Shown: positions 3,720 through 18,941 of the stretch, piece after piece
Numbering within the stretch: the first letter of the stretch is position 1
Layout: every line of letters starts with the position of its first letter
Virus record (IMG/VR): IMGVR_UViG_3300037153_000351
DNA from: an uncultured virus (IMG/VR IMGVR_UViG_3300037153_000351)
Taxonomy: Duplodnaviria > Heunggongvirae > Uroviricota > Caudoviricetes
Strand: one strand, 5' to 3'
Length of the DNA: 20,000 nt
Position numbers and translations under genes: made by a program
Notes under the pieces: generated by a model
Seen by the model: only the letters and a program-made list of their open reading frames with translations
The model's database searches: none
Told to the model about the DNA's origin: nothing

Positions 3720-4355
3720 TCAAATCCAATGCCGGTAATAATGTTCGAGCACGTTCTTGACCGAATTCCACGTTTGCGTGCTTACGCCCGACGTTGCCGT
3801 GGTCGACCCGCTTTGCGTTGGCGAGTGATATTGCACGCGCGCTTGTTTGTGCGCGATCATGCGCACGCCCGTGAGCGACGGCGGGCGTTGCGATGACGTA
3901 TAGGCTTCGCGCGAGACGGCGGTCACCGCCGCCTTGAGATCGTAGGGGGCCTCGTCGGGCAAGTGGTAACCGCCGGAATAAATCGAGTCGACCACGCCGG
4001 CGAAATCGCCATACAGCGTCCCGGTTTTTTCCTCCAACGTCCAATTCGTATCAAGCAAAATGTCGACGCCGTTCAAGGTCAGCACCTCGATATCGGAGAA
4101 TTTCACCGGCCATTGCGAAAAAAACAATTCCTTCGTGCCGGCCTCGATTTCGAAAAACGTCTCGGTGACTTTCTGATATCCGAATACACGATTGACGAGG
4201 CGGGCGACCGCCGCCGACATTTCGGTGTTGATCAGCGCAAGCGTTGCATCTTTCGTCGTGTCGCCCGGGGTCACGGCAAGCAACAATTTGAGCTCGTCGA
4301 CCGTGACGAGATCAATCGAGTCGGGCTCGATCAGCACGTTCATAATCTGTTTCAT
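3720..4355 (-). CDS. Head-tail connector (HK97 gp6 / phiE125 gp8-like)
   Basis: Start re-called at [26 protein letters not shown] (ATGA overlap with the collagen gene stop). LVTVDELK...D..L..I...SAAV...NRVF and [18 protein letters not shown] are typical connector motifs. Confidence 0.75.
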
Positions 4356-5713
4356 CGCGCCGCCTCGTCGTGGAATTTCCGGAACAGCGCACGCAATTCG
4401 AGTCGCGGGCCCTCGCTCCCGTTGGTCATGATCGGCGTCGCCGTGTAGTTGGCGGCGTCGATATGCCATGCCCGGATGCTCGCTCCGGGCTCGCCGCGAT
4501 CGCCGCGGTCGCCTTTGCGCCCCGACGGGCCGACCCGCCATCCCGGCCCCGGGCAGGGCCCCGGATTATTTTGCACCGCAGCGAACCATGAGCCGTTGAG
4601 GGTGACGACGCTCAACGCCGGATAATTTTCGGCCGCATCATAGGGCCCACGGATCTCCAATCCCCGTCCCGGTTCGCCCGGTTTGCCATCTGCACCGTCA
4701 CGTCCATTCGCGCCCGCTGCGGCGACGAGTTGCCAAGTGTCGCTCGATCCATGTCCCGGCTCGGCCGCAGTGTCGGCGATGGCCTGCCAGCATGAGCCCC
4801 GGTAAACGACCAATTCATTCGCATAAGTGACGCTCCCGGGTTGCCATTCGCCTTTAACCGCCTTGAGGATTCCCATGGGCCCCTGCGGGCCTTGTGGGCC
4901 TTCGGGGCCGCGGCGACCTTGCGGGCCTTCCGGGCCGACGGGCCCGGGGTTGCCTATCGGCCCCTCGGGGCCACGTTCACCCGCGACACCCGCAGGGCCG
5001 GATTGACCCGGTTCGCCTTGGACACCTTGCGGACCAATGGGCCCGGGCGAGCCGTCGTTGCCTTGAACACCTTGCGGGCCCGTTTCACCTTGCTTGCCAT
5101 CGTTGCCTTGCTCCCCTTTTGGGCCCGCCGCTCCGGGCGGGCCCTGTGGTCCTATGGGGCCTTGCGGGCCGGTTTCGCCCATGGGGCCCGGATTTCCGAC
5201 CGGGCCGACGTCGCCCTGTGGGCCCTGTTGCCCGGATGGCCCCTCTTGCCCCTGCGGGCCGATTTCGCCGACGGGGCCCGCAGGACCGGGAGGACCGTTG
5301 GCCCCTTGTGCCCCATCGGCCCCCGCGGGCCCTTGCGGGCCGGCGGGGCCTGCGGGCCCGCTATCGCCGGCGGGACCGCTCGGCCCTTGCGGCCCCTGCG
5401 GCCCCGGCTCGCCGTCCTTGACGGTTGCCAGCTTGGCCGACATCTCGACCCGGAGCGCGGCCTTTAACTCACTGATTTCGTTGCGCAGAGTCGACAATGT
5501 TTCCCGGGAAACACTTTCGAGCTCACGCATGTGCGCCATCGCTGCGCGCAACTCCGCGGCAAAGATCTCGGTTTCCTTGCGCCATTCGCGGCGCAGTTCC
5601 GAAATGACGACGCCGCCAGCCTCGACAAGGCCGTCGTCAAGCTCGTCCTGCATGTTCGCGGCGATCAATTCGCCGTGCCCGTTTAAGGAATTGTTGTCCG
5701 AGGGATCGTCCAT
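4352..5713 (-). CDS. Collagen-like virion protein: coiled coil, 61 Gly-X-Y triplets, two aromatic CBM5/12-like modules
   Basis: Uninterrupted Gly-X-Y from 5413 to 4865. C-terminal modules [22 protein letters not shown]...EPG...W and [22 protein letters not shown]...PGPGW. RBS GGAG. Confidence 0.85.
4865..5413 (-). repeat. Collagen Gly-X-Y coding repeat (61 triplets)
   Basis: Counted from GEP to GIL; 9-bp periodicity in the DNA. Confidence 0.95.
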
Positions 5714-7446: not shown

Positions 7447-9804
7447 TCACCATGTGATCGCGGAGACGTAGGAAACCATGCCCGTGCGCCGCATGACCCA
7501 ATTCATCCTTTGGATCATTCGCAGTGCAAGGGTATCAGTTTGCCACAGTGACCTAACCGGAGTCGCCGCAGTGCCCGCACCCGTGCCGCCGACAATCGGC
7601 GCGGGATTCGTGTCTTCCTCGTGAATCGTCGCTTGGTCGCTAATGTCAAAAGCGGGGGCTTCTCCGCCGACAGTAACGAAATCCGCCGCGTCGAGTAGGA
7701 TAACCGTTTTCACGGGCACGGTTCCGGAATCGATGACCGGGATATTGAGCAACGTTCCGCGCGCCAACTCGTCACGGAATGGCATGAGGCCTGTGTTCGG
7801 CGGAACGATCATGCTTGCCGAGAGCACGTCGCCCGGGTTCATGAGAAAAACCGGCGAGCGCAGATTGCCCTGTGTCGAGGTAACGAGCGCACCGACGAGA
7901 TTCTTGATATCGCCGATAATCGCGTTGAAGGCATTGCCGCCGAGCGCCGTCGGGGTTTGACCCGAAACGCCGTTGAGCAAGCCCGCGGGACGAATGGTCG
8001 TCGCCGCATTGCTATCGAGCAACACGCTATCGAGCGCGACCGAGGTATCGTCCGAGATAGCTTCACGCAAAAGCCCCTCGATGGCCGGGATAGAGTATTG
8101 ATCGATCTCCTTTGTCCAGCTCGTGATCACGGCCATCTTTTTCGGAGTTAACACTTGACTCGTGAACGCGCCGCGCCGCACGGGGATCGGCATACCCTCG
8201 CCGACGAATGAGCCGGCGATGGTCGGGGTTGCGCTGCGCATCGGGATATTGATGCGACCGGCACGACCGAACGACAATTGCAGGCCCCTCGCCGCGAGCC
8301 GCGGATATACACTTTGAGGCTGGAGGAGTCCGAGGTAATCCGCGTTAATTTGCGTCACGAGTTCGGCCGCCCATCCGGTGACTGTCGTCAAGGCCGGATT
8401 GACCGCCGCGCGCGTGTGCCAATCAACGACGGCGCGCATCTTGTCGTTATTGTAGGGCTCGTATCCCTTGCAGATTTCCTCCGGCGAGCGATTGAAGATC
8501 CGCGCGAGATAGGTCACCACGCCGGTGCGCACGACATAGTCGAGCGGCTTGATTTCTTTCGAACCGGGCGGGGCGAAAAAGCTCTTGCGGCGCTCGCGTT
8601 CGGCCTCGCTCACGTCGTGGCCGTTACCGTTGTGATGGCGCACGACCTGCACATTGCTATCGTGGCCGTCGCCATTGCTCGGCGTTGTGTGGCCGGCGAG
8701 GTTGCGCTCCGACTCTTCGAGCATGGAGAGAGTCTTTTTCGCCTGCGCGATTTTGCCGTTGAGCGTGGTCGTGGTTTGCATTTGCTCGTCGGTGACGTTG
8801 GAATCGTCGAGCCGACCGATATGCTCCCCAAGCTCGTCGGAATATTGGACGAGCCGCTTTTGGATTTCCTGAATTCTAGCAGCAAGGCCGCTCATGGCGG
8901 TGCCCTTTCCTGTAGCGTTTGACGATGTGGCGTGCTTGCCATGGGAGGCGTCGGCGGATCGTTTTGGCGTGCTTGCCCGAGTCCTCGACGAAATGAGACG
9001 CACCACGTTTCTATTGATGGCGTGCTTGCCGAAAACGAGGTGTTCCGTCTCTTGGGAAATGTGCAGCGACTTGACGACCGCCAATGCGTTCGGGTTGGCG
9101 GGGATACTTACGAGCGACGTCTCGACGAGCTCGTGTTTGGTGAACCGTTGCGGCCCGAAAGGATCCTTGTCCTTTTCGTTGAGCGGTTTCGATTCGATCG
9201 GCCGGAAACCGACCGACACCGCGCGCAGGATTCCGGCTTGCACGAGCCGGCGGATCTCGTCGATCCGTTCCGAGGTGCCTTCCGGCGCGAGCATGAGCTC
9301 GCCGCGTAATGAATTCTTGTCGGTGCGCACGTTGCGCCATGTGCCGATCGGAAAATTAGGATTGTGGTTGAAGAGAGCCAAGGGGTTGCGGAGGAAATTT
9401 TTGAAATCCCATCCGGCGACATCGATCACGTCGCCGAACCGATCCGGGGTTGCGTCCGATAAAATGAATTCCGTTCCGCTTCCTTGTGTCGTGGTTTGCT
9501 TGTGCACGAGCTTGGCACCCGCGCGTTCCTCCCACGCGATTTGACATGCGTCCTCGGCCTCGTCCTCGTCGGCCCCCGCGTCGGTGAGCTCGCCAATGCA
9601 GCGATCCATATATTCGCCGTGCGATTCACCGTCCTCCGGGATTGGCACGTCGTCCAATTGCTTATTGCGATTGCGCCAAATGTCGAGGCATGCGGCGACC
9701 GCCTGTTCCTGTGGCCGCTTATCCTCGCCGGTGCCAATCATTTCCGGGACGCATCGCGACATCCATTCCGACTGCGATTCACCTTTGTGCGGTTTGATCG
9801 GCAT
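7447..9804 (-). CDS. Prohead protease (HK97 type) - major capsid protein fusion
   Basis: Protease motifs DRFGDVI, LFNHNPNFPIG, VSVGFRP, ELVETSLVSIPANPNA. These are followed by a coiled-coil delta-like region and an HK97 capsid fold (FVGEGMPIP, LTPKKMAVITSWTKE, RPAGLLNG, SLWQTDTLALRM). RBS AAAGGA. Confidence 0.95.
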   Translation of the reverse strand: MPIKPHKGESQSEWMSRCVPEMIGTGEDKRPQEQAVAACLDIWRNRNKQLDDVPIPEDGESHGEYMDRCIGELTDAGADEDEAEDACQIAWEERAGAKLVHKQTTTQGSGTEFILSDATPDRFGDVIDVAGWDFKNFLRNPLALFNHNPNFPIGTWRNVRTDKNSLRGELMLAPEGTSERIDEIRRLVQAGILRAVSVGFRPIESKPLNEKDKDPFGPQRFTKHELVETSLVSIPANPNALAVVKSLHISQETEHLVFGKHAINRNVVRLISSRTRASTPKRSADASHGKHATSSNATGKGTAMSGLAARIQEIQKRLVQYSDELGEHIGRLDDSNVTDEQMQTTTTLNGKIAQAKKTLSMLEESERNLAGHTTPSNGDGHDSNVQVVRHHNGNGHDVSEAERERRKSFFAPPGSKEIKPLDYVVRTGVVTYLARIFNRSPEEICKGYEPYNNDKMRAVVDWHTRAAVNPALTTVTGWAAELVTQINADYLGLLQPQSVYPRLAARGLQLSFGRAGRINIPMRSATPTIAGSFVGEGMPIPVRRGAFTSQVLTPKKMAVITSWTKEIDQYSIPAIEGLLREAISDDTSVALDSVLLDSNAATTIRPAGLLNGVSGQTPTALGGNAFNAIIGDIKNLVGALVTSTQGNLRSPVFLMNPGDVLSASMIVPPNTGLMPFRDELARGTLLNIPVIDSGTVPVKTVILLDAADFVTVGGEAPAFDISDQATIHEEDTNPAPIVGGTGAGTAATPVRSLWQTDTLALRMIQRMNWVMRRTGMVSYVSAITW

Positions 9805-9817
9805 GGCGGATCCTTTC

Positions 9818-10837
9818 TCACCAACGGCCTATCGTCCAAGCGACGCCGGCTTGCGAGCGCAGCGCCCATGAGACGGGAAGGCGGAGACGAATTGCGACGC
9901 AATCGGTTTGCCACGTGGATTGCGTTGGGCCGGTCATGAGGTCGGTTGGTGCATTTTCCATTTGCAAGGTGTTCTCGCGCCGCGCCGATATTTCCGGCAC
10001 ACCATCGAATGCGGAAACCAGCACGTCGGGCGCAACCGCGATCATGTCATTGGTGCCGCGCAGCGCGCGTGTGCCGATCATGGTGACGGGCTCATAGGCG
10101 TCGAGCGTCAATTGCGCTTTCATCGTGCGCGCCAAGCTTTGCAGATAGATCGGCGGCCGGAACGCGACCTCGGCGACCTCAAGATAGAGGTTCGTCAAGT
10201 CGCTGATCAGCGCGGTGCGCGGATCCGTTGACGGGTCGGCGGCAATTCCGATGACGCCATAGCGCAGGCCGGCGGGGCGCGCCGCGCTCGCGGGTTGGTC
10301 GTCGAGCAACACCGCGTCGAGTGTGAGCGCGACCGACCGCGTGAGCGCGTCCGCGATCAGGGCCTCGGCGTTTGAGGACCGCACCATTTCGCTTGTGAGA
10401 ACGACAATGCAGGCGAGCTTGTGCGGCGTGAGCTTGCACAGTTCGGCCTGCCCCTGCACGACCGGGATCGGAAATCCTTCGGGCACGAATGCCGCCAGCG
10501 TTGGATCTCCGAACAACGTCGGCACAGAGATTTCGCCGGCGTTATCGAATGCGAGTTGCAGGCCGCTCGCGAAGATCCGCGCCGCCGCCGATTGCGGGGC
10601 GAGTGCGACCACGAATTCCGGCATGACCGTATGCACGAGCGCCGGCACGTCGGCCGTCGTCGCCGGCGGCGAGGCCGCGCGCAGCAACCACGGCACAACG
10701 CTATCGTCGCTCCCCCATCGGAGTTGCGCGACCCGATGCGCGGGGACGCCCTCGAATGCGGCGATAGCGGCCGCCGCGCATGCGCGCACGAGGCTCCGCA
10801 CGCCGTGCGGAATTACCAATTCGCGTTTTGAATCCAT
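9818..10837 (-). CDS. Stand-alone HK97-fold capsid paralogue B (339 aa from the probable ATG)
   Basis: LAPQSAAARIFASGLQLAF, AFVPEGFPIPV, LTPHKLACIVVLTSEM, LDAVLLDD...RPAGLRYG, STWQTDCVAIRL...WALRS all align by eye with the capsid part of 7447..9804. Confidence 0.85.
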   Translation of the reverse strand: MDSKRELVIPHGVRSLVRACAAAAIAAFEGVPAHRVAQLRWGSDDSVVPWLLRAASPPATTADVPALVHTVMPEFVVALAPQSAAARIFASGLQLAFDNAGEISVPTLFGDPTLAAFVPEGFPIPVVQGQAELCKLTPHKLACIVVLTSEMVRSSNAEALIADALTRSVALTLDAVLLDDQPASAARPAGLRYGVIGIAADPSTDPRTALISDLTNLYLEVAEVAFRPPIYLQSLARTMKAQLTLDAYEPVTMIGTRALRGTNDMIAVAPDVLVSAFDGVPEISARRENTLQMENAPTDLMTGPTQSTWQTDCVAIRLRLPVSWALRSQAGVAWTIGRW

Positions 10838-11832
10838 GCCGCGCCTTGCGGCGAGCGCAACGCCCACGTCGCGGGCGCGACCATTTTGACGGCAACACTC
10901 GCGGTCTGGAACATGGAGGACACGGGCGGGGCGGGGAACGCCGCCGGCGCGCTATCCATGGTCAAGGTTGCTTGCGTCGAGATCTCGAATTCCGGCACGC
11001 CGGCCGCCGACACGACGGCGTTGACGGCAACCGCAATCACGGTGCCTTCTGGAACGGCGGCCGCCAGCGCGATGATATTGGCGTTCTGCCCTCCCCCTCG
11101 CGTCACAATCGCGGTGATCTGCGCGAGATTGCCGACGAATGCGATTTTGCTCGCGCCCGCGACCGGCGCGATCGCCGCGGCGAGCTTGGCGAGGTCGGCC
11201 ACCATGGCGTCGCTTTTCTGCCCGGTGCCGGGATCCTCCGTGAGCGGCGCAATGCCGTTGAGCAAGCCGGCGGGTTGCGCGGGCGTGGCGGCGGCATTCG
11301 AGAACACCGCGGCGTCGAGCACGGGCCCAAGGCTTTGCGCGAGCATTGCGCGCATGAATGTTTCGGTCGGATCCTGCGCGAACAATTCCGTCGAGGCCAC
11401 GGTAATGCCGGCGACCTTGTGCGGGTCGAGCCGCGCGCCCGCGCTCGTGCCCTGTAGAACCGGCTTTGCGTCGCCTTCGGCGACGAACGCAACCGGCACG
11501 GTAGCGAGGCCCGGGACGGTGACGCCGCCGAACTCGCGTCCGAGCGGCACGGAAAGCCCCATGTCGAACAATTGCGCGGCGGCCGAATACGGTTCGAGCA
11601 TGGGAAACACCGCGGCCGCGATTTGCACGAGCGCGGCGGTGTCGGTCATCGTGTGCGGCGAGGTCGCGGCGCGCACGATCAAATGCGCGTCCTCGTCGAA
11701 CGGCCATGCCTTGGCCGCGTGCTCGTCGGCGGTCATGGAGCGGTCAAGCCGCGAGCGCAGCGTCGCCATGGCGGCGCGCGAGATCGAAAGGATCGGGTCG
11801 CGCTTGAATGTGGAATGGTCGAGCGGTTTCAT
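10813..11832 (-). CDS. Stand-alone HK97-fold capsid paralogue A (339 aa from the probable ATG)
   Basis: Start re-called at MKPLDHS (ATGA overlap with the glycosyltransferase stop; RBS GAGG). LEPYSAAAQLFDMGL, AFVAEGDAKPV, LDPHKVAGITVASTEL, QPAGLLNGI, SMFQTASVAVKM...WALRS. Confidence 0.85.
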   Translation of the reverse strand: MKPLDHSTFKRDPILSISRAAMATLRSRLDRSMTADEHAAKAWPFDEDAHLIVRAATSPHTMTDTAALVQIAAAVFPMLEPYSAAAQLFDMGLSVPLGREFGGVTVPGLATVPVAFVAEGDAKPVLQGTSAGARLDPHKVAGITVASTELFAQDPTETFMRAMLAQSLGPVLDAAVFSNAAATPAQPAGLLNGIAPLTEDPGTGQKSDAMVADLAKLAAAIAPVAGASKIAFVGNLAQITAIVTRGGGQNANIIALAAAVPEGTVIAVAVNAVVSAAGVPEFEISTQATLTMDSAPAAFPAPPVSSMFQTASVAVKMVAPATWALRSPQGAAWIQNANW

Positions 11833-12998
11833 GATGCCTCGCATTGCGCGCTTGCCCAATCGCCGGCGGTTTGCTGGCGACAGATTTTCAGATTGCGATA
11901 CCACGGCGACAGCCATCGCCAGCTTGCCCAATGCGACAACAGCGCCGTGATGTTCGGGTGCCCGATCGCGCCGGCGAGGTGTAGCGCCGCGGTGTCGACG
12001 GTCACGATCTCGTCAAGCAACGACATGAGCGCGGCGCAGTCGGCGAAATCCTCGAAGCGGAAATTCGCGACGCCGAGCGCGTCGGCCTCGGCCGCACCCT
12101 GCTGTTGCACGCTCACGAACGTGCGCTCGCGGCCGATGCGTGAGGTGAGTTCGGCGAGCGAGATCGAGCGCGGGTAATCGCCGTCATAGCGCACGCCGAC
12201 CGACCACGCGACGCCGGTCGCCGGCCGCCCGATCCGCGCGCGCCATTTGTCGACGAGCCCGGGGTCGACCGTGAGATACGGGTCGAGCGGCACAGTGTCG
12301 GGCGAGATCTTCAGCATCGTGAGCAAATGCAGGAACGAGCAAAAGTAATCGGCCTCGATCAGCATGTCGGTGACCTCGCCGCATTGCGCCGCGAGCCGGG
12401 TCAATTCCGGCGGCACCATGAGCGTGACCTCGGCCCCCATGCGGCGCAACATCGGCACGAACCGCAAGCACATGATGGTGTCGCCGAACCCGTGGTCGTG
12501 CGTCAGCAACAGGTGCTTGTGTGCGAGCCGTTGGCCCTGCCACGGTTTGAGCCCGCAGGCGAGCGCGTCGCGGCGGTTCGGCCGCATAAACGGCGGCGTG
12601 CGCTCGCATCGTTCATAGACGTCGAGCCCCTCCCGCCAGCGACCGAGGCCGAGCAATATCATCGCGCGATTGAAATGCGCGCGTGTGGTCGCCGCGAGAT
12701 CCAATGCGCGGTCGATTTCCGGCAATGCCGCCGTGGGATTGTTGGCGAACATCAAATGCCGCGCCCGGTCGAAATGGGCGAGATAGGCGTCGATTGTGCC
12801 GGCGGGCGTGAGCTCTTTCGGTAGCGCGTGATAGCCGACCGGCGCGCCGTGGCGATTGGAGATGCACAGGCGTTCCGGGATGTTTGCCGCATCGACGTTG
12901 TAAAGCTCGCCGTCGGCGGTGAGGCCGCGCCATCCGGCGTCATTGCGCTCGCATAGAACAATGGGCGCGAGCTCGGGGGCGTCGAACAGTGCCGTCAT
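11829..12998 (-). CDS. TPR-containing GT-B glycosyltransferase, GT9 (heptosyltransferase)-like
   Basis: TPR-like segment AHFNRAMILLGLGRWREGLDVYE; PWQGQRLAHKHLLLTHDHGFGDTIMCLRF (the EQGxGD-type motif); C-terminal LDEIVTVDTAALHLAGAIG...WRW...WY. Confidence 0.85.
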   Translation of the reverse strand: MTALFDAPELAPIVLCERNDAGWRGLTADGELYNVDAANIPERLCISNRHGAPVGYHALPKELTPAGTIDAYLAHFDRARHLMFANNPTAALPEIDRALDLAATTRAHFNRAMILLGLGRWREGLDVYERCERTPPFMRPNRRDALACGLKPWQGQRLAHKHLLLTHDHGFGDTIMCLRFVPMLRRMGAEVTLMVPPELTRLAAQCGEVTDMLIEADYFCSFLHLLTMLKISPDTVPLDPYLTVDPGLVDKWRARIGRPATGVAWSVGVRYDGDYPRSISLAELTSRIGRERTFVSVQQQGAAEADALGVANFRFEDFADCAALMSLLDEIVTVDTAALHLAGAIGHPNITALLSHWASWRWLSPWYRNLKICRQQTAGDWASAQCEAS

Positions 12999-13002
12999 GT
13001 TG

Positions 13003-13305
13003 TTATCGCAAGCGCGGCAAGCCGCCGATCGCGCCGAGCAAGCAACTCAACAACGCGAAAATGAGATAAACCACGGCGATCATGATCACGGCCCAAATCA
13101 CGATATTGAGTGCGGCCGCGACAAAGCCGAGCAAACCGGACGGCGAGGGCCCCGACCACGGCGCGCTAACCGGCGGCCAAAATGCACTCCCGGGAGCGCC
13201 GCCGCCGAGCGCCATGATCAGCAATCGCAACAGCGCGACAACGGCGATGATGATGATGACCCATACCGCAATGGCTTCCCAGAATGCGAGTGATAAGCAT
13301 GCCAT
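13003..13305 (-). CDS. Small integral membrane protein (two TM segments, Pro/Gly linker)
   Basis: Two long hydrophobic stretches; RBS GGAGG; tightly packed with both neighbours. Confidence 0.75.
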   Translation of the reverse strand: MACLSLAFWEAIAVWVIIIIAVVALLRLLIMALGGGAPGSAFWPPVSAPWSGPSPSGLLGFVAAALNIVIWAVIMIAVVYLIFALLSCLLGAIGGLPRLR

Positions 13306-13306
13306 G

Positions 13307-13477
13307 TCAGCCTCCGCGCCGGTTCGGATGCGATTGCGCTTTCGCTTCCGGTTTTGCCAGCGTGACCGGGCGCGGCTTGTGCTGTTCGCGCTCGCGCCCG
13401 CCGCTCGTGAATTTGTAGGTCGCTTTCGTGAGTGCGCCGCGCAAGGCGATGCGCGCGCGATCGTCGAGGCGTTTCAT
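13307..13477 (-). CDS. Small basic hypothetical protein (56 aa)
   Basis: Start re-called at MKRLDDRAR with RBS AGAGG; stop lies 1 nt before the next start. Confidence 0.5.
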   Translation of the reverse strand: MKRLDDRARIALRGALTKATYKFTSGGREREQHKPRPVTLAKPEAKAQSHPNRRGG

Positions 13478-13788
13478 GCTCGTGCCTCTTGCAAGGTTGC
13501 CCGGGCCCTCCGACCAACGGTTGCCACGGCGGGGCACCGTCGAGGAGGCCGGAAGGCCCGGGCGTGCCCCGGTCGCGAATCCGGGGAGCGGAATTGAGTC
13601 GCGTCCTTGAGTATCGGAACACGAACGTGCGACACTTGCGCGCAGAAATTCTCAAACGATCACGTTCGAATTGTCCGCTAACCCTTTGAGCATTTCCGGT
13701 TTGAGTCCCGTGTCGCGGCTCAAGATTCGAAAAAATATTCGAGGTGTGATATTATTATTTCACGTCGTCGGAAATGGCGGCGGGTTAT

Positions 13789-13889
13789 TTGACAAGTGAA
13801 CCCCCTGTGCAGAAAAGGCCCGCCCCGGGCCGCCGCGAGTTTTAAGCGACCGGGGGCGGGGAGTTTCTGTCATACCATGACACAAGGAG
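13789..13889 (+). promoter_or_regulatory. Putative promoter/leader of the plus-strand gene
   Basis: TTGACA at 13789-13794 (no convincing -10); GC-rich hairpin at about 13819-13860; palindrome TGTCAT-ACC-ATGACA at 13868-13882; RBS AAGGAG at 13884-13889. Confidence 0.45.
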
Positions 13890-13895
13890 TCTACC

Positions 13896-14402
13896 ATGCC
13901 CAAGAGGGCAAAAGTAAAGCTTACGAAGATCGAAAAGCTCGACCGCGACATTCGGCTCGCCTATCGCAAGCAAGAGCGCGCGATGGACATGCTCAAAAAA
14001 GGCGAGCGGATGTTGAAGACCTCGGCGAGCGACCTCGCGCGGCTTAACAAGAAAAAGGCGAGGCTCGAAAGTGAGCAATTCTTGTGGGCCAAGGCTCACG
14101 AGTCCACACTTGAGACTGCGGCCGGCGGCGTTCGGTTCGGGCCCGACGAAGCGGTCAAGCGACCGCAGGACGTCGAGCCGCCGAAACCCAAGCGCCGGCG
14201 CAAAGCCCCGCCCGGATCCGAGCAAGCGGCGTTGCAGCACACGCCGCCCTCGGCGAACCTGCCGCCGCCGGATTTCGTCAAGCGGCAACTCGACCGCGCG
14301 CGCGAGGCCGAGGCATCGGTCGAGGACCGCGAGGCCCGCATGAAGTCGCTCGGCTTCCGCCAGACCTCGAATCGCCGTAAACCTCCAAGCGTTGGACAGT
14401 GA
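13896..14402 (+). CDS. Basic, coiled-coil hypothetical protein (moron-like, opposite orientation)
   Basis: Strong RBS AAGGAG; helical Lys/Arg-rich N-terminal half; own downstream terminator. Confidence 0.8.
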   Translation: MPKRAKVKLTKIEKLDRDIRLAYRKQERAMDMLKKGERMLKTSASDLARLNKKKARLESEQFLWAKAHESTLETAAGGVRFGPDEAVKRPQDVEPPKPKRRRKAPPGSEQAALQHTPPSANLPPPDFVKRQLDRAREAEASVEDREARMKSLGFRQTSNRRKPPSVGQ

Positions 14403-14420
14403 AGCGCTTGGCCAATCTGT

Positions 14421-14672
14421 TTAACGCCTCAACTCAAGGCCCGCGCCGCGCAAGGTGCGGGCCTTTTTCATTTCGCCGTCCCAACGCGCGATAATATCCT
14501 TGGCGACCTCGGCGGGATTGCGGCCATAGATGGCGGCCGTGAGGCGAACGACTGTCCAGCCGGCGACCTTATCGACGCGTGTGGGCGGCCAACCGTTCGC
14601 GCCGGCGCGCTCGCGGATAATCCACGCGAGTGCGTCGCGATAACTCGCCGCCGGCAATTCCGATGGTGACAT
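14421..14672 (-). CDS. Hypothetical protein (about 83 aa; start uncertain)
   Basis: MSPSELPAASYRDALAWII...VVRLTAAIYGRNPAEVAKDII looks like a folded helical protein; the upstream extension in the ORF track does not. Confidence 0.5.
   Translation of the reverse strand: MSPSELPAASYRDALAWIIRERAGANGWPPTRVDKVAGWTVVRLTAAIYGRNPAEVAKDIIARWDGEMKKARTLRGAGLELRR
14436..14468 (+). terminator. Intrinsic terminator
   Basis: AAGGCCCGCGCC-GCGCAA-GGTGCGGGCC-TTTTT, 33 nt after the stop of 13896..14402. Confidence 0.75.
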
Positions 14673-14731
14673 TTGGTCCGCCGCCGCGGGGCCGTGTCGG
14701 GTGTCATCATCGGCGATGATTCGCTCGACCG

Positions 14732-14947
14732 TCAAGATCCTGTTCCGATTTCGATCCTGCGGGCGTTTGGCGCGGGGGCGTCGGTAAGTTCCACATCCCA
14801 ATTTCGTATTTGGGCGTAGCGGTGCACCTTTGCGCCCGTCCATCCCATCATGTAGCGCAATAGCGGCGCGGTTTTCACCACACGGTCGCCTTCGAGCTCG
14901 ACGCCGGCGGTGAACGCCTTATCCGACAGGCGGATCAATTCGCGCAT
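14732..14947 (-). CDS. Small phage hypothetical protein (71 aa)
   Basis: Start re-called at MRELIRLSDKAFTAGVELEGDRVVKTAPLLRYMMGW (TGATG overlap with the upstream stop). Confidence 0.7.
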   Translation of the reverse strand: MRELIRLSDKAFTAGVELEGDRVVKTAPLLRYMMGWTGAKVHRYAQIRNWDVELTDAPAPNARRIEIGTGS

Positions 14948-15156
14948 CACTTGTGCGACCCGTGCACATGGGCGCGCCGAACGTGGCGACGCCGAGGTTG
15001 CTCGACCTCCAATCCGGAACGATGCACGACATGTCGCAAATGATGCGACATCGAGTGCCACAGATTTTCGTTGTCACGGTCACGTCGCAAGAGTCGAAAA
15101 TCCTCGTGCGCGTGGCAAGCGTGGCGATGAATGGCGTCGTGATTATTCCAACTCAT
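14947..15156 (-). CDS. His-rich small protein (14 His in 69 aa)
   Basis: RBS GAGGT; starts 1 nt after the methyltransferase stop; its stop overlaps the next start. Confidence 0.6.
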   Translation of the reverse strand: MSWNNHDAIHRHACHAHEDFRLLRRDRDNENLWHSMSHHLRHVVHRSGLEVEQPRRRHVRRAHVHGSHK

Positions 15157-15157
15157 G

Positions 15158-15724
15158 TCAATACCTCGCGAACGCTAACCATGTGCCGGCGGCGCGCTGA
15201 ATCGGCCATCCCTCGGCGTGCAGGCGATTGAGCGCCATGGTGACCTCGACGGCCGGGTTCCCGTAATCGTGCCACACGACAATGCCGCCCGGTTTCACGA
15301 GCCGGCGGGCGAGCAGGCTATCGCACACGACGCCGGCCTCGCTGTGATCGCCATCGATAAAGATGGCGTCGGCGGGTTCGAGGTCGGGGGCTTCGAGCGC
15401 GACCGAACCGACCGGGCATTCGACCAACCAGAATCGGCCGTTGTGTTTGCTGGCCTCGTGGCCCGCGTGCTGCGGCACCTCGGTTCGTTGGCACGACAGC
15501 GTTGTCATGAACGTCGACGGCACATCGATTCCGATATAGGTCGAGATTGTCGGCACGTTGTCGAGCACCCGGCAAGCGGTGCGCCCGGTATGGCATCCGA
15601 ACTCGATCATGACCGTCGGGAGCACGGAGCGCACGAGGGCGACGAGCGTCGCGGTTTCGTGTGCGCCGAGGTAATAGCTAAACGGCCCCGGGATCGACGG
15701 CGCGGGGACGTCGACCGCGTCCAT
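15158..15724 (-). CDS. Class I SAM-dependent methyltransferase (Methyltransf_24-like), 188 aa
   Basis: Start re-called at MDAVDVP (TGATG overlap). Motifs MIEFGCHTGRT, YIGID, DAIFIDGDHS, LVKPGGIVVWHDY. Confidence 0.9.
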   Translation of the reverse strand: MDAVDVPAPSIPGPFSYYLGAHETATLVALVRSVLPTVMIEFGCHTGRTACRVLDNVPTISTYIGIDVPSTFMTTLSCQRTEVPQHAGHEASKHNGRFWLVECPVGSVALEAPDLEPADAIFIDGDHSEAGVVCDSLLARRLVKPGGIVVWHDYGNPAVEVTMALNRLHAEGWPIQRAAGTWLAFARY

Positions 15725-16653
15725 CACGTCACCGTCGTCACCGAAAATATGCAGTCGGTTTCCTGCAACGCATCGTCGACGATCTTTTGGCCGGAACGAA
15801 AACGAATAAAGGCATATCCGAGCGGCCATGTGGTCGGCACGATCACGCGCGTGTCGGGCCTTGCGCCGATCAGGAGCTCGCGCCCCGCCTCGTTCATGAG
15901 ATCCATAAATTCGACGTCGTCGATCGAGCAGAGGAAGCTCAAGTTCGCCTTGGGATCCCATTGCGGCGGGACGCTGAAATGCACGATGCGGGCGTTGCGG
16001 GCGTCGAGTGAATTGGACACGCGCGCGCCGGCGGGAATGGTGATCGTCGAGGTTGTGATGATCGGCAATTCTTCCTCGTTCGGATCCCAACTCGTGAGCG
16101 GGGGCGGCGTGCTCGTCGGCGGCCCCAACGAATAGGGCGCGGCGGCGAGCGGGATGTTGATCGTGCCGAGGATTAGCGCCGGTTTGTCGAACAGCGGCGC
16201 GAGCAAGGAATAGGTCGGCGCGATTAGCTGTGCGGTGATCGTAAGCGCCGGCGCGGCGAACGCAAGCGGAGCGAGGGTGTATGCCGCCGCCGAGAGTCGG
16301 ACGGTGAGGCCAAGGCCCGGGGCGGCATACACGGGAGCGCCCAACCAATACGGATTGGCCGCGAGCCCGATTTCGATGATCTCGCTATCGAGCGGGGGCG
16401 TCGCGTAGGTGGGCGAGCCGAGGGCGTAAGTGTTGGCCGCGAGCTCGTGCCGGCCGGCGAGCGGCGGGGCTGCGAAGCTCGGCGAGCCGAGCGTGTAGGG
16501 CGAGGCCGCCAGCACACGCTTGACCGTGAGTGCGGGCGTGGCGAACGCCAATGCTCCAAGCGAATAGGGGCTCGCCGTAAGCGCGTAGGTGACGACCGCT
16601 TGAAAGGCGTCGGGCTGGAACGCGTTGGCCTGAAAGGCCGCGGGCCCTGCCAT
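15724..16653 (-). CDS. Putative virion-associated protein: AFQ x3 leader, seven 23/26-aa repeats, C-terminal beta-rich domain
   Basis: RBS AGAGG; repeats with consensus LxAxxYxLGxxxFAxPxL; C-terminal domain TITIPAGARVS...W...LSFLCSIDD...FIRFRSG. Confidence 0.75.
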   Translation of the reverse strand: MAGPAAFQANAFQPDAFQAVVTYALTASPYSLGALAFATPALTVKRVLAASPYTLGSPSFAAPPLAGRHELAANTYALGSPTYATPPLDSEIIEIGLAANPYWLGAPVYAAPGLGLTVRLSAAAYTLAPLAFAAPALTITAQLIAPTYSLLAPLFDKPALILGTINIPLAAAPYSLGPPTSTPPPLTSWDPNEEELPIITTSTITIPAGARVSNSLDARNARIVHFSVPPQWDPKANLSFLCSIDDVEFMDLMNEAGRELLIGARPDTRVIVPTTWPLGYAFIRFRSGQKIVDDALQETDCIFSVTTVT

Positions 16654-17312: not shown

Positions 17313-18941
17313 TCACCCGATCAGAGTTGTCACGTCGAACTTTGGTTTTGCCAGCGGGGCGATGCCGCACGCCATGGCGAGCGCCACAAGCCCGTCAATG
17401 CGGCCGACCGACCGGCGCTTGCTCGGCTTCCGGTTGCCGGCGTCGTCGAGCGTGATCACCGTGTTCGCGACGCACATGGAAAGAATCGGGTTATTGCCGT
17501 GGCAAAGCGCCTTGTCGCGCAGTGCTTCCTCCAACGCGCGCAGCGCCGGCGACATGCCCTGAAAATTCTGCCCGAACTCCGTGAAATGCTCGGTGACGAA
17601 ATTCTCGCCGAGGCCGGCGTTGATCATCCACGATTTCAGGTGCTCGAACCCCCATTTGTCGAACGCGATTTTGCGGATCCGATAGTGCGCGAATTGCTCG
17701 CGCAGATAATTCGCGACCCATTGGAATTTAACCGCCGCTCCCGGGGTCACGGTGAGATAACCCTCGGCCGCCCATTGGTCATACGGCACCCGGTCGGCGA
17801 CCGCTTTCTCCGCGAGATTTTCCTCCGGTAACCAGAACGTCGGATGCACGCCCCATCGTCCATCCTTGCGCTGGCCTATCAGCACGAACGCCGTGAGGTC
17901 GGCGGTTTGTGAGAGATCCAGCCCCCCGTAAAATTCCATTCCGTCCTCGAACCCGCCCGGGAGTGCGCCGTTCGCCGCCCATAGTTCGGGCGAGCAAAAC
18001 GGGTTCGCAACCTGCACCCGCTGATTCAGAATCAAATTGCGATATTCCGCCTCGCGACTTGGCATGCGCTTGGCGGCCGCCGCCATGGCGATGACCTCTT
18101 GCTCATTCAAGAAATTGCCGAGCGCAGGATTGGCGAGTCGAATGGTTTCGAGGTCGAACGGGTCGAGCGTCTTGTCCGCCGTGTAGAGGCGAACCACCAC
18201 GCGCGGGTCGTGGCCGGCAAGGCCATCGTCGATTAATTGGGATAGCAAATCGGCGTCGGTCGGCGCTTGCGTGCTGATCACAATCGAGAGCGGGTTGGCT
18301 TGCGCGCCGGTCGCCGTTTCCAACGCCTCGTAGAGCGTACTTCGCGGCCCGCGAACCTGTCCCAATTCGTCATGGATACAGAATACCGGCGACAGGCCGA
18401 ACGCCGTGGTCGCCTCGGCGGCGAGCGCCCGGTATTTCGTGCCGAGGTCGGGGCACATGAGTTCCTTGGCCGCCTCACGCACCACGATCGAATCGCGCAG
18501 ATCCGGCGACATGCGTGCAATCTTGGCCGCGAGTTGAAAAATCAACGCCGCCTGTTCACGCGAGGTCGCGGTCGAGAATAGTTGCGAATTTGGAATAAAC
18601 TTCGGCCCGCACAGGTGCACGAGTAGCAACAGCGCCGCGAGACAGGTTTTCCCGTTCTTCCTTCCGAAACTGAGGATCGCTGTGCGCGTGCCGTGCGGAT
18701 TGTCGTAAATCGCCTCCAGCGCCTCGACCTGCCACGGCGCAAGCTTGAACCGCTGCCCGATCATCGCCCCTTCCGGGATGTAGCATTTCCGCTCGATCCA
18801 ATCGACAATCGCCGCCGCCGAGGCCCGTTTGGGGGGCTCGATCGTGACCCGCGGGGCCGGCGTAAGCGGCTTGGGCGGTCGCCCCCGCTTGCGCTTGGGT
18901 TCCGGCGGAAATTGCAGCAAATCAGGGCCAACCATAGGCAA
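17313..18941 (-). CDS. terL: Terminase large subunit (Terminase_1, HK97/P27-like); start may be ATG 18935
   Basis: LAPWQ; Walker A GRKNGKT; Walker B CIHDELG; coupling motif VIST; nuclease GGLDLSQTADLTA and RIDGLVAL. Confidence 0.95.
   Translation of the reverse strand: MPMVGPDLLQFPPEPKRKRGRPPKPLTPAPRVTIEPPKRASAAAIVDWIERKCYIPEGAMIGQRFKLAPWQVEALEAIYDNPHGTRTAILSFGRKNGKTCLAALLLLVHLCGPKFIPNSQLFSTATSREQAALIFQLAAKIARMSPDLRDSIVVREAAKELMCPDLGTKYRALAAEATTAFGLSPVFCIHDELGQVRGPRSTLYEALETATGAQANPLSIVISTQAPTDADLLSQLIDDGLAGHDPRVVVRLYTADKTLDPFDLETIRLANPALGNFLNEQEVIAMAAAAKRMPSREAEYRNLILNQRVQVANPFCSPELWAANGALPGGFEDGMEFYGGLDLSQTADLTAFVLIGQRKDGRWGVHPTFWLPEENLAEKAVADRVPYDQWAAEGYLTVTPGAAVKFQWVANYLREQFAHYRIRKIAFDKWGFEHLKSWMINAGLGENFVTEHFTEFGQNFQGMSPALRALEEALRDKALCHGNNPILSMCVANTVITLDDAGNRKPSKRRSVGRIDGLVALAMACGIAPLAKPKFDVTTLIG

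Follow-up and report, generated by a model that had tools for sequence, protein, structure and literature searches.

Stand-alone HK97-fold capsid paralogues beside a protease-capsid fusion gene in an uncultured tailed phage: candidate specialised shell subunits

Capsid genes of the window

In the present study, we analysed a stretch of 20,000 nucleotides from an uncultured virus assigned to Caudoviricetes (IMG/VR record IMGVR_UViG_3300037153_000351; the whole stretch is called the window hereafter), in which three genes for HK97-type capsid proteins lie in tandem. One encodes the fusion protein P0001, in which the main capsid domain follows a protease and a scaffold-like region, and the other two encode the stand-alone capsid paralogues P0002 and P0003, which are labelled MCP' to set them apart from the major capsid protein (MCP). 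The packaging and head operon of the window lies entirely on the minus strand, and its capsid genes are as follows.

7447-9804, minus strand: fusion capsid protein P0001, 785 amino acids (aa), with protease, scaffold-like region, and HK97 capsid domain
P0001 residues ~1-100: twice-repeated cysteine motif at the N-terminus
P0001 residues ~111-300: S78 prohead protease (Pfam Peptidase_S78, 3e-11; phrog_80 protease, 6e-25)
P0001 residues ~301-420: scaffold-like (delta-like) region
P0001 residues ~421-785: HK97 capsid domain (phrog_617 "major head protein", 8e-80; Pfam Phage_capsid, 5e-7)
9818-10837, minus strand: MCP'-A (P0002), stand-alone HK97-fold paralogue, 339 aa, subclade A
10813-11832, minus strand: MCP'-C (P0003), stand-alone capsid paralogue, 339 aa, subclade C

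The coordinates of both stand-alone open reading frames (ORFs), their lengths of 339 aa, and the 25-nt overlap between them are as claimed in a preliminary description of this locus, which was made from the sequence alone. As listed, the ORFs extend further upstream (9818-10867 for P0002 and 10813-11931 for P0003), the 339 aa being counted from the ATG codons at 10837 and 11832, respectively. The start of P0003 in turn overlaps the stop of the upstream gene at 11829-12998, which encodes P0004, in the sequence ATGA, and these two genes are translationally coupled. P0001 starts 13 nt past the P0002 stop and is preceded by an AAAGGA motif.

Regarding homology, BLASTP aligned P0002 with P0003 at 34% identity over 289 aa (E = 7e-28), P0001 with P0002 at 31% over 322 aa (E = 2e-31), and P0001 with P0003 at 30% over 233 aa (E = 6e-17). 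The shared motifs listed in the preliminary description were all present, in order, in a three-way alignment of these proteins, the similarity of which (E 6e-17 to 2e-31) lies well beyond chance. Both stand-alone proteins matched phrog_617 (P0002, 9.2e-13; P0003, 4.6e-11), and no match of Pfam Phage_capsid (PF05065) to P0002 or P0003 was found at E<=0.01; several of their homologues do have a precomputed PF05065 match. The AlphaFold2 model of P0002 (predicted local distance difference test, pLDDT, 86.7; predicted template modelling score, pTM, 0.82) matched solved HK97-fold capsid proteins with a Foldseek probability of 1.0 (8gta, 9d9x, SaPI1 8vd4, and HK97 1ohg), with 333 chains at E<=0.001. 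The HK97 fold, with N-arm, E-loop, spine helix, and P and A domains, is predicted in full for P0002, and we infer the same fold for P0003 from its 34% identity to P0002.

The protease and the long scaffold-like part of P0001 are absent from P0002 and P0003, as the preliminary description had proposed for the delta-like region; however, approximately 50-60 helical residues are kept at their N-termini and align with fusion residues ~418-460, the P0003 N-terminus MKPLD being aligned with fusion residues 417-421 (IKPLD). The stretches that MCP' best shares with the main capsid protein are the N-arm (RAAsaPAMTtVxGWAAEL), the base of the E-loop (FVxEGxPIPV), the RPAGLxNG motif, and the C-terminal P-domain strands, and the least shared are the axial domain and the first 50 residues of MCP'.

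The axial segment, measured between the RPAG and QTD anchors by alignment columns, comprised 147 residues (146-156) in 33 fusion capsid domains. In MCP', the medians were 124 residues for clade A (13 rows) and 128 for clade B (43 rows), with 123 in the one row of clade C; single rows had 120-130 residues, apart from one short clade-B row of 84, and the segment comprised 122-124 residues in P0002 and 123 in P0003. Every MCP' clade was approximately 20-27 axial residues shorter than the fusion proteins, including the copies from satellite-like islands and the stand-alone copy of a further locus, L003 (L003_S2, 120 residues), and the three-way alignment of P0001, P0002, and P0003 placed axial deletions of 15 and 8 residues. 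This shortening is a stronger point than the low conservation of the axial domain.

The MCP' family, its inheritance, and its gene neighbours

At 90% identity, the orthologue sets of approximately 340 aa comprised 52 clusters for P0002 and 77 for P0003. With an MCP' profile, 6932 cluster representatives were matched at E<=1e-3, of which 1415 reached E<=1e-30. Nearly all of the top 150 had lengths of 320-380 aa, and the family is nearly always stand-alone. Three groups were distinguished in trees, namely, the fusion capsid domains of the phage clade of the window, distant fusions of the PAJU2/Stx type, in which no second capsid copy was found, and a well-supported superclade of stand-alone MCP' proteins. 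The last contains, among others, subclades A (with P0002; support 98-99), B (the commonest), and C (with P0003; support 99). On the evidence of these trees, P0002 and P0003 are not recent tandem duplicates, but members of two old subclades. In the preliminary description, they were treated as paralogues of the phage's own capsid gene, whereas the trees point to an old, separate family represented by different subclades. Ancient duplication and acquisition of MCP', between which a phylogeny was expected to decide, cannot be separated by the tree because the branching among the three groups is unresolved.

Viral scans anchored on MCP' provided 68 and 51 loci, and a scan anchored on the fusion domain provided at least 553 relatives, 80 of which were used. 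The same synteny of capsid and MCP' genes, a search for which had been proposed, was found in more than 100 loci, and the MCP' genes belong to the head operon of an extensive clade of uncultured myoviruses. Among 114 distinct MCP'-bearing phage loci, 108 had one stand-alone copy and six had two; the latter represent five phages (of ~113), which are that of the window (C with A) and those of L008, L009 (= L010), L032, and L048 (= L324) (B with A). The three-capsid-gene state of the window is rare, not unique. The idea that clade A always provides a second copy was dropped, as in the complete genome G005 a clade A gene is the sole companion of the fusion. The genes usually run from the terminase through MCP', a homologue of P0004, the methyltransferase, the fusion, a small ORF, the portal, the collagen fibre, and the adaptor on to the sheath. 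In other loci, the MCP' module follows the fusion gene (L013, L014, and L074), lies before the terminase (L291), or occupies the gap between the fibre gene and the adaptor (L282 and L331, in which the MCP' gene stands directly after the collagen fibre homologue).

Of the 26 fusion-anchored loci that span terminase to portal, which include two sets of repeats of the same phage (L019/L152/L155/L156 and L150/L151), 19 had one MCP' and seven had none, and the assumption that MCP' is universal in the clade was dropped on account of these seven. In the fusion tree (96 capsid domains), MCP' was present in all 51 status-known loci of a 74-row clade, all seven MCP'-less loci fell in one 18-row subtree, and two changes suffice for this distribution. 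Across 52 phages, MCP' identities were correlated with main-capsid identities (Mantel r 0.71, a value reached in 0 of 999 permutations), and by this measure MCP' co-diverges with the main capsid gene. Complete genomes with MCP' comprised 76.8 kb (G005) and 84.0 kb (G414) versus 74.7 and 77.3 kb without it, with no size signal, genome size being a proxy only for the size of the head. Where present, MCP' is stably inherited, although a fusion-type head can do without it, and it shows no tie to genome size. Behind the fusion gene in a phage of the MCP'-less subclade (L003:6377-13027), we also noted a stand-alone capsid copy of 391 aa, followed by two IPT/TIG-domain genes. This copy is nested in the fusion clade, with an unsure placement on a long branch, and suggests a second, separate origin of the stand-alone design.

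The ratio of nonsynonymous to synonymous substitution rates (dN/dS, NG86) had a median of 0.13 in 20 MCP' pairs (range 0.034-0.22; distant fusion genes excluded), in comparison with 0.116 in the main capsid domain (102 pairs), 0.099 in the portal (57), and 0.136 in the homologues of P0004 (7). The MCP' genes are, judged from these ratios, under purifying selection, and the neutral evolution and frequent pseudogenisation named in the preliminary description as grounds for refutation were not seen. Of 120 MCP' copies, 112 were full-length, five were cut by contig ends, and three were shorter matches, and none of the 120 carried an internal stop. Both stand-alone genes of the window are intact and, with identities of 30-34%, diverged. 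GC content at third codon positions (GC3) was 0.77-0.83 in the module of P0002, P0003, P0004, the methyltransferase, and ORF 15724-16653 (9818-16653), versus 0.68-0.72 in the fusion, portal, and sheath and up to 0.75 in other head genes.

The gene at 11829-12998 belongs to the same module and was overlooked in the preliminary description. It encodes a protein with features of tetratricopeptide repeats (TPR) and of glycosyltransferase family 9 (GT9), and is referred to as TPR-GT9 together with its homologues. The features around the capsid genes are listed below.

11829-12998, minus strand: P0004, TPR and GT9-like glycosyltransferase-fold protein, with N-terminal beta domain, TPR helices, and GT-B-like domain
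15158-16348, minus strand: Methyltransf_24 ORF, 396 aa (domain ~15262-15607, Pfam 6.5e-12)
Between the terminase and P0004: small ORFs and the Methyltransf_24 gene
17313-18941, minus strand: large terminase (phrog_9, 1e-114; TerL_ATPase and TerL_nuclease), upstream border of the module interval
Between P0001 and the portal: ORF of 102 aa
5637-7067, minus strand: portal (Phage_portal, 6e-69), downstream of the capsid fusion, as usual in this phage group
4352-5713, minus strand: collagen-repeat fibre gene (Pfam Collagen, 4e-31), within the head module between portal and adaptor
Beyond the collagen fibre gene: head-tail adaptor, head closure protein, and tail sheath

The order of terminase, capsid fusion, and portal is normal for phages with a protease-capsid fusion. 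In P0004 (389 aa), Pfam matches to TPR_16 (3.5e-5) and TPR_2 (5.9e-5) were both under Pfam's own cut-offs, and Glyco_transf_9 (1.6e-4) scored 21.5 bits against a cut-off of 22; GT9 was matched by 20 of 24 P0004 homologues, with a best value of 6e-6. A P0004 profile matched TPR proteins in the PDB (best 3.9e-5), and in the AlphaFold2 model (pLDDT 93.8) a beta domain is followed by TPR helices (68-147) and then by a GT-B-like domain, with the GT9 structures 3tov (7e-6) and 1psw, bacterial and human OGT, and TibC as Foldseek neighbours. The stretch D335-T336...H340...G343 is invariant and may resemble the sugar-nucleotide motif of GT9. Regarding linkage, TPR-GT9 was found in none of nine MCP'-less loci that include the terminase versus 15 of 19 MCP'-bearing ones, and was never seen without MCP'. 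Of 30 well-flanked clade B cases, 27 had it less than 400 nt from MCP', and all five clade A cases contained it. On the basis of this linkage, MCP' is possibly glycosylated by P0004. The methyltransferase homologues are approximately 170 aa long, adjoin TPR-GT9 in many loci, and are usually next after that gene.

In some relatives, MCP' itself is extended. P0259 and P0271 (819 and 894 aa; 56% identical) are MCP' proteins with a C-terminal tail-fibre-like module (phrog_4209, 3e-17 and 5.5e-18). A TPR-GT9 identity was ruled out for these extensions, which are fibre-like instead. The fused genes occupy the usual spot between terminase and fusion (L331:1524-4262, L332:7987-11022, and L333:9794-12829), and these fusions speak for a subunit exposed on the shell, with its C-terminus pointing outward. 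A further MCP' gene separates the collagen fibre gene of L331 from the adaptor, so that this locus has three HK97 genes in another arrangement.

In addition to phages, MCP' occurs in satellite-like islands. In seven loci (L005, L006, L196, L198, L204, L273, and L274), an MCP' gene lies just downstream of a primase/helicase gene; no protease or portal was detected in these loci, and tblastn found no terminase large subunit or fusion capsid there. MCP' is the only recognisable capsid gene of these islands (coordinates, L005:5000-13500 and L006:5900-11800), and a small terminase gene is present as well in L005 and L204. The L005 island, of approximately 8 kb, is flanked by host genes in a 318-kb contig of a metagenome-assembled genome (MAG). 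The two bacterial MAGs holding L005 and L006 contained no fusion capsid gene, and a sample of 400 further genomes, drawn from the class to which one MAG belongs, yielded no match to the MCP' profile at 1e-20 and hence no lead to a cultured host. ORFs of 120 aa upstream of MCP' in L005 and L006 were considered as scaffold genes and rejected, being mutually unlike and bearing no resemblance to the scaffold region. Satellite- and phage-type MCP' are interleaved in the tree, with at least six changes, and the L005 copy branches as the sister of clade A, the clade of P0002 (support 86). These islands look like phage satellites of Gram-negative soil bacteria that resemble those with the capsid homologue Ccm described below, five of the seven resting on short contigs.

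Some further observations on the window and its relatives were made. P0001 opens with two cysteine motifs of approximately 45 aa (GESxxEWMxRCxxE...AC; 9505-9804, minus strand) before the protease domain; these repeats are 43% alike over 35 aa (E = 4e-9), have no Pfam match, and occur in one or two copies in relatives. As listed, the collagen fibre ORF shares 77 nt with the portal ORF and 190 nt with the adaptor ORF, its homologues occur in relatives both with and without MCP', and the gene at 4352-5713 may encode a head (capsid) fibre. The 396-aa methyltransferase ORF and the 309-aa ORF at 15724-16653 overlap by 625 nt in different frames, and homologues of the methyltransferase part and of the 309-aa ORF part occur apart in relatives. 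The interval 15158-16653 probably contains two shorter genes, the true methyltransferase gene being only the 3' third of its ORF because the 5' part overlaps ORF 15724-16653. The terminases of phages with similar head genes are of two kinds, 35-41% or 54-66% identical to that of the window, whereas the portals of these phages show 57-63% identity to the window portal; these two kinds of terminase beside similar head genes point to module exchange at the terminase.

Specialised shell subunits and rival explanations

Our preferred reading, for and against which we find the balance roughly even, is that P0002 and P0003 are specialised shell subunits, probably vertex (penton) proteins, and possibly glycosylated. 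They would co-assemble with the protease-scaffold-capsid fusion at special positions, most likely the five-fold vertices. The fusion protein would provide the internal scaffold and the protease and make the hexons, and the stand-alone paralogues would bring neither a protease nor a long scaffold; a shortened axial domain would suit the tighter five-fold capsomer. The outward C-terminus or surface would carry additions, in the form of a fused fibre in some relatives and probably, in the window, of sugars from the adjacent TPR-GT9 enzyme, with a methyltransferase nearby. P0002 and P0003 are accordingly expected in the virion and may be processed at the shared R-A-A site, and the two MCP' genes (A and C) may serve two kinds of special position or form mixed vertices. 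Vertex-type subunits are favoured because the family is conserved, co-diverges with the main capsid, is under purifying selection, has a short axial domain like that of the penton protein of phage Jabs, and includes fibre fusions. This reading is also supported by gene location, both genes being co-oriented within the late head operon, with the terminase on one side and the main capsid gene on the other, and by their overlapping or closely spaced starts. Of the roles in a hetero-oligomeric capsid that were considered in the preliminary description, the vertex-type one gains from this evidence, and a size-modulating one is weakened by the similar genome sizes with and without MCP' (75-84 kb).

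Several points weigh against a vertex role. In whole-record searches, the complete relatives G410 (74,661 bp), G411 (77,254 bp), and G413 (53,009 bp, with terminal repeats) had the fusion gene only and no MCP', so that a complete head can be made from the main protein alone; G410 and, among the genomes with MCP', G414 are classed as proviruses. One vertex protein would suffice, so that the second copy in the window is unexplained, and two copies are rare. MCP' was more diverged than the main capsid in 99.3% of 1326 pairs, and its dN/dS was approximately 1.4-2.6 times that of the main capsid in eight of ten matched pairs; such fast evolution would also fit a conflict-driven non-structural role, and the higher GC3 hints at a different history for the module. 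The axial domain is generally the most variable part of the HK97 fold, and low conservation there is weak evidence. As for the sugars, P0004 has modest matches in Foldseek (best E 7e-6; template modelling scores, TM, 0.41-0.45), and the partner of the enzyme in the window is uncertain because clade C, including P0003, is mostly without a TPR-GT9 neighbour. Cultured relatives were not found; among phage records, the best match to P0001 showed 27-30% identity.

An unlikely alternative, albeit one that shares most of the evidence, is that the paralogues are shell subunits without vertex specificity, present in a few copies in hexons or mixed capsomers, where they would serve as a display or decoration platform for sugars or fibres or dilute the internal load of protease and scaffold. 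Operon position, fold, family size, inheritance, selection, shared surfaces, fibre fusions, and the linked enzyme apply equally to such subunits, the fusion puts approximately 420 internal residues on every subunit, and relatives build heads without MCP'; two to three MCP' types per genome are, moreover, easier to understand as several display variants than as one vertex role. What speaks for the vertex instead is the short axial domain, which recurs in all clades and in the L003 copy and matches a trait of the Jabs penton protein, and the location of the second paralogue at pentons in both solved cases considered, Jabs and Ccm of SaPIbov5.

Less likely again is an origin in conflict between phages and satellites, in which MCP' would be a capsid redirector of the Ccm type and the phage copies would have been captured from satellites or would guard the phage's own assembly. 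The seven primase/helicase-linked loci with MCP', their interleaving in the tree with L005 as sister to clade A, the fast evolution of MCP', the module's own GC3, and the Ccm precedent are all consistent with this history. However, the phage copies lie in the late head operon and were inherited vertically with the main capsid over long spans, genome size is the same with or without MCP', and short contigs are the basis on which five of the seven loci are read as satellites. P0002 and P0003 themselves do not fit a Ccm-type satellite setting, since their phage has a terminase, fusion capsid, portal, and sheath. The preliminary suggestion of interference with satellites thus stands insofar as the family is common to satellite-like islands, but the islands look like pirates and the phage copies are head-operon genes. 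The further suggestion of a non-virion decoy, by which a free capsid-like protein would mislead or soak up host sensors, perhaps after modification by TPR-GT9, found nothing in its support and is improbable. The dispensability of MCP' in a sister lineage, its fast divergence, and its link to a modifying enzyme would suit a decoy, whereas the retention of the whole fold and its assembly surfaces, the placing and coupling of the genes in the late operon, and the fibre fusions of relatives would not; no positive sign of a link to defence was met, and a copy of a sensed protein would be expected to trigger the sensor rather than to blunt it. Room remains for something else.

Beyond the reading as vertex subunits, a wider picture may be drawn, which we regard as possible but doubtful. 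In a clade of soil myoviruses, heads would be built of two to three HK97 proteins, with the fusion forming the faces and fast-evolving vertex subunits being sugar-coated by TPR-GT9 or fused to fibres like the adenovirus penton, and primase-bearing satellites, which have no other capsid gene, would have acquired the vertex gene several times in order to pirate these phages. If true, this would place a Ccm-like strategy outside staphylococci and be the first link of capsid paralogy, capsid glycosylation, and satellite piracy. Heads of several HK97 proteins would be common in nature, not rare, if the reading as vertex subunits is right, because at least 553 viral contigs encode the main fusion and MCP' has 1415 representatives (E<=1e-30). 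Its new elements would be a partner without scaffold or protease for a protease-fused main protein, a dedicated glycosyltransferase-like gene, and fibre-bearing versions, and with MCP' in satellite-like islands, capsid piracy becomes open to testing in Gram-negative soil bacteria. In annotation, MCP' genes are not to be labelled as "the" major capsid protein. In a literature search that covered few subscription journals, we found no description of this clade, of a scaffold-less protein that partners a protease-fused main capsid protein, or of a link between a capsid paralogue and a TPR-glycosyltransferase, and a search of the same coverage for other dual-capsid phages yielded only T4, Jabs, and Ccm.

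Comparison with known systems

Heads of more than one HK97 protein were known earlier from T4, the gp23 and gp24 of which are two HK97-fold paralogues, a hexon and a vertex protein, respectively. The likeness to the window lies in these two paralogues of one phage, divided between hexon and vertex. The T4 vertex protein is also dispensable in evolution, as gp24-bypass mutants of gp23 exist. T4 differs by its prolate head and by a separate protease that processes both proteins, and it is not known to have a protease fusion or a linked glycosyltransferase.

A second case is Jabs, a siphophage of Mycobacterium abscessus. According to the preprint on this phage (bioRxiv 10.64898/2026.07.24.740622), MCPh (594 aa, with the HK97 part at 252-594) forms the hexons, and the 11 pentons of the T=9 head consist of the adjacent MCPp (257 aa), which is 18% identical to MCPh and the axial domain of which is reduced; the authors called this two-protein head unprecedented among icosahedral phages in 2026. 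Compared in architecture, not in sequence, both systems have a long capsid protein with a large N-terminal extension beside a short stand-alone HK97 paralogue, the identity between the two is low (18% in Jabs and 30-31% in the window), and the short one has a reduced axial domain. By general capacity figures, the ~75-84 kb genomes of the complete relatives could suit a Jabs-like head. Jabs differs in being a siphovirus of an actinobacterium, whereas the phages analysed herein bear a sheath (myovirus type). The short protein comprises 257 aa in Jabs versus 339 aa in the window, and a protease is not mentioned for MCPh in the passages considered, unlike the protease-fused P0001. The present phages have one to three stand-alone copies, a linked TPR-GT9, fibre fusions, and copies in satellites, and the penton place, which is reported for Jabs, is proposed for the present system.

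Regarding the satellite-like islands, Ccm of SaPIbov5 is a stand-alone homologue of the helper HK97 capsid protein (24% identity) that takes penton positions (Hawkins et al., 2021; PMC8569155). The satellite that encodes it has no further capsid genes, which is also the situation of L005 and six similar loci. In contrast to MCP', Ccm has its own delta domain of 87 residues and changes the size and shape of the head, whereas the window genes are part of a full phage and genome sizes are the same with or without MCP'. The hosts of the present system appear to be Gram-negative soil bacteria.

The possible modification of MCP' also has parallels. FlmG holds its protein substrate, the flagellins, by its TPR part, and sugar transfer is carried out by its C-terminal part (PMC7591256). 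As in FlmG, OGT, and SPY, the TPR helices of P0004 precede a GT-B-like domain; P0004 differs from FlmG and OGT in being much smaller, with approximately four pairs of TPR-like helices and with a beta domain added at its N-terminus. TibC, which is among the Foldseek matches of P0004, is likewise a GT9-type enzyme that glycosylates a protein. Glycosyltransferases encoded by mycobacteriophages are reported by Freeman et al. (2023) to modify capsid subunits. In those phages, ordinary glycosyltransferases are said to act on the C-terminus of a single main capsid protein, whereas the TPR-GT9 of the present phages appears, from its gene linkage, to be tied to a separate capsid paralogue.

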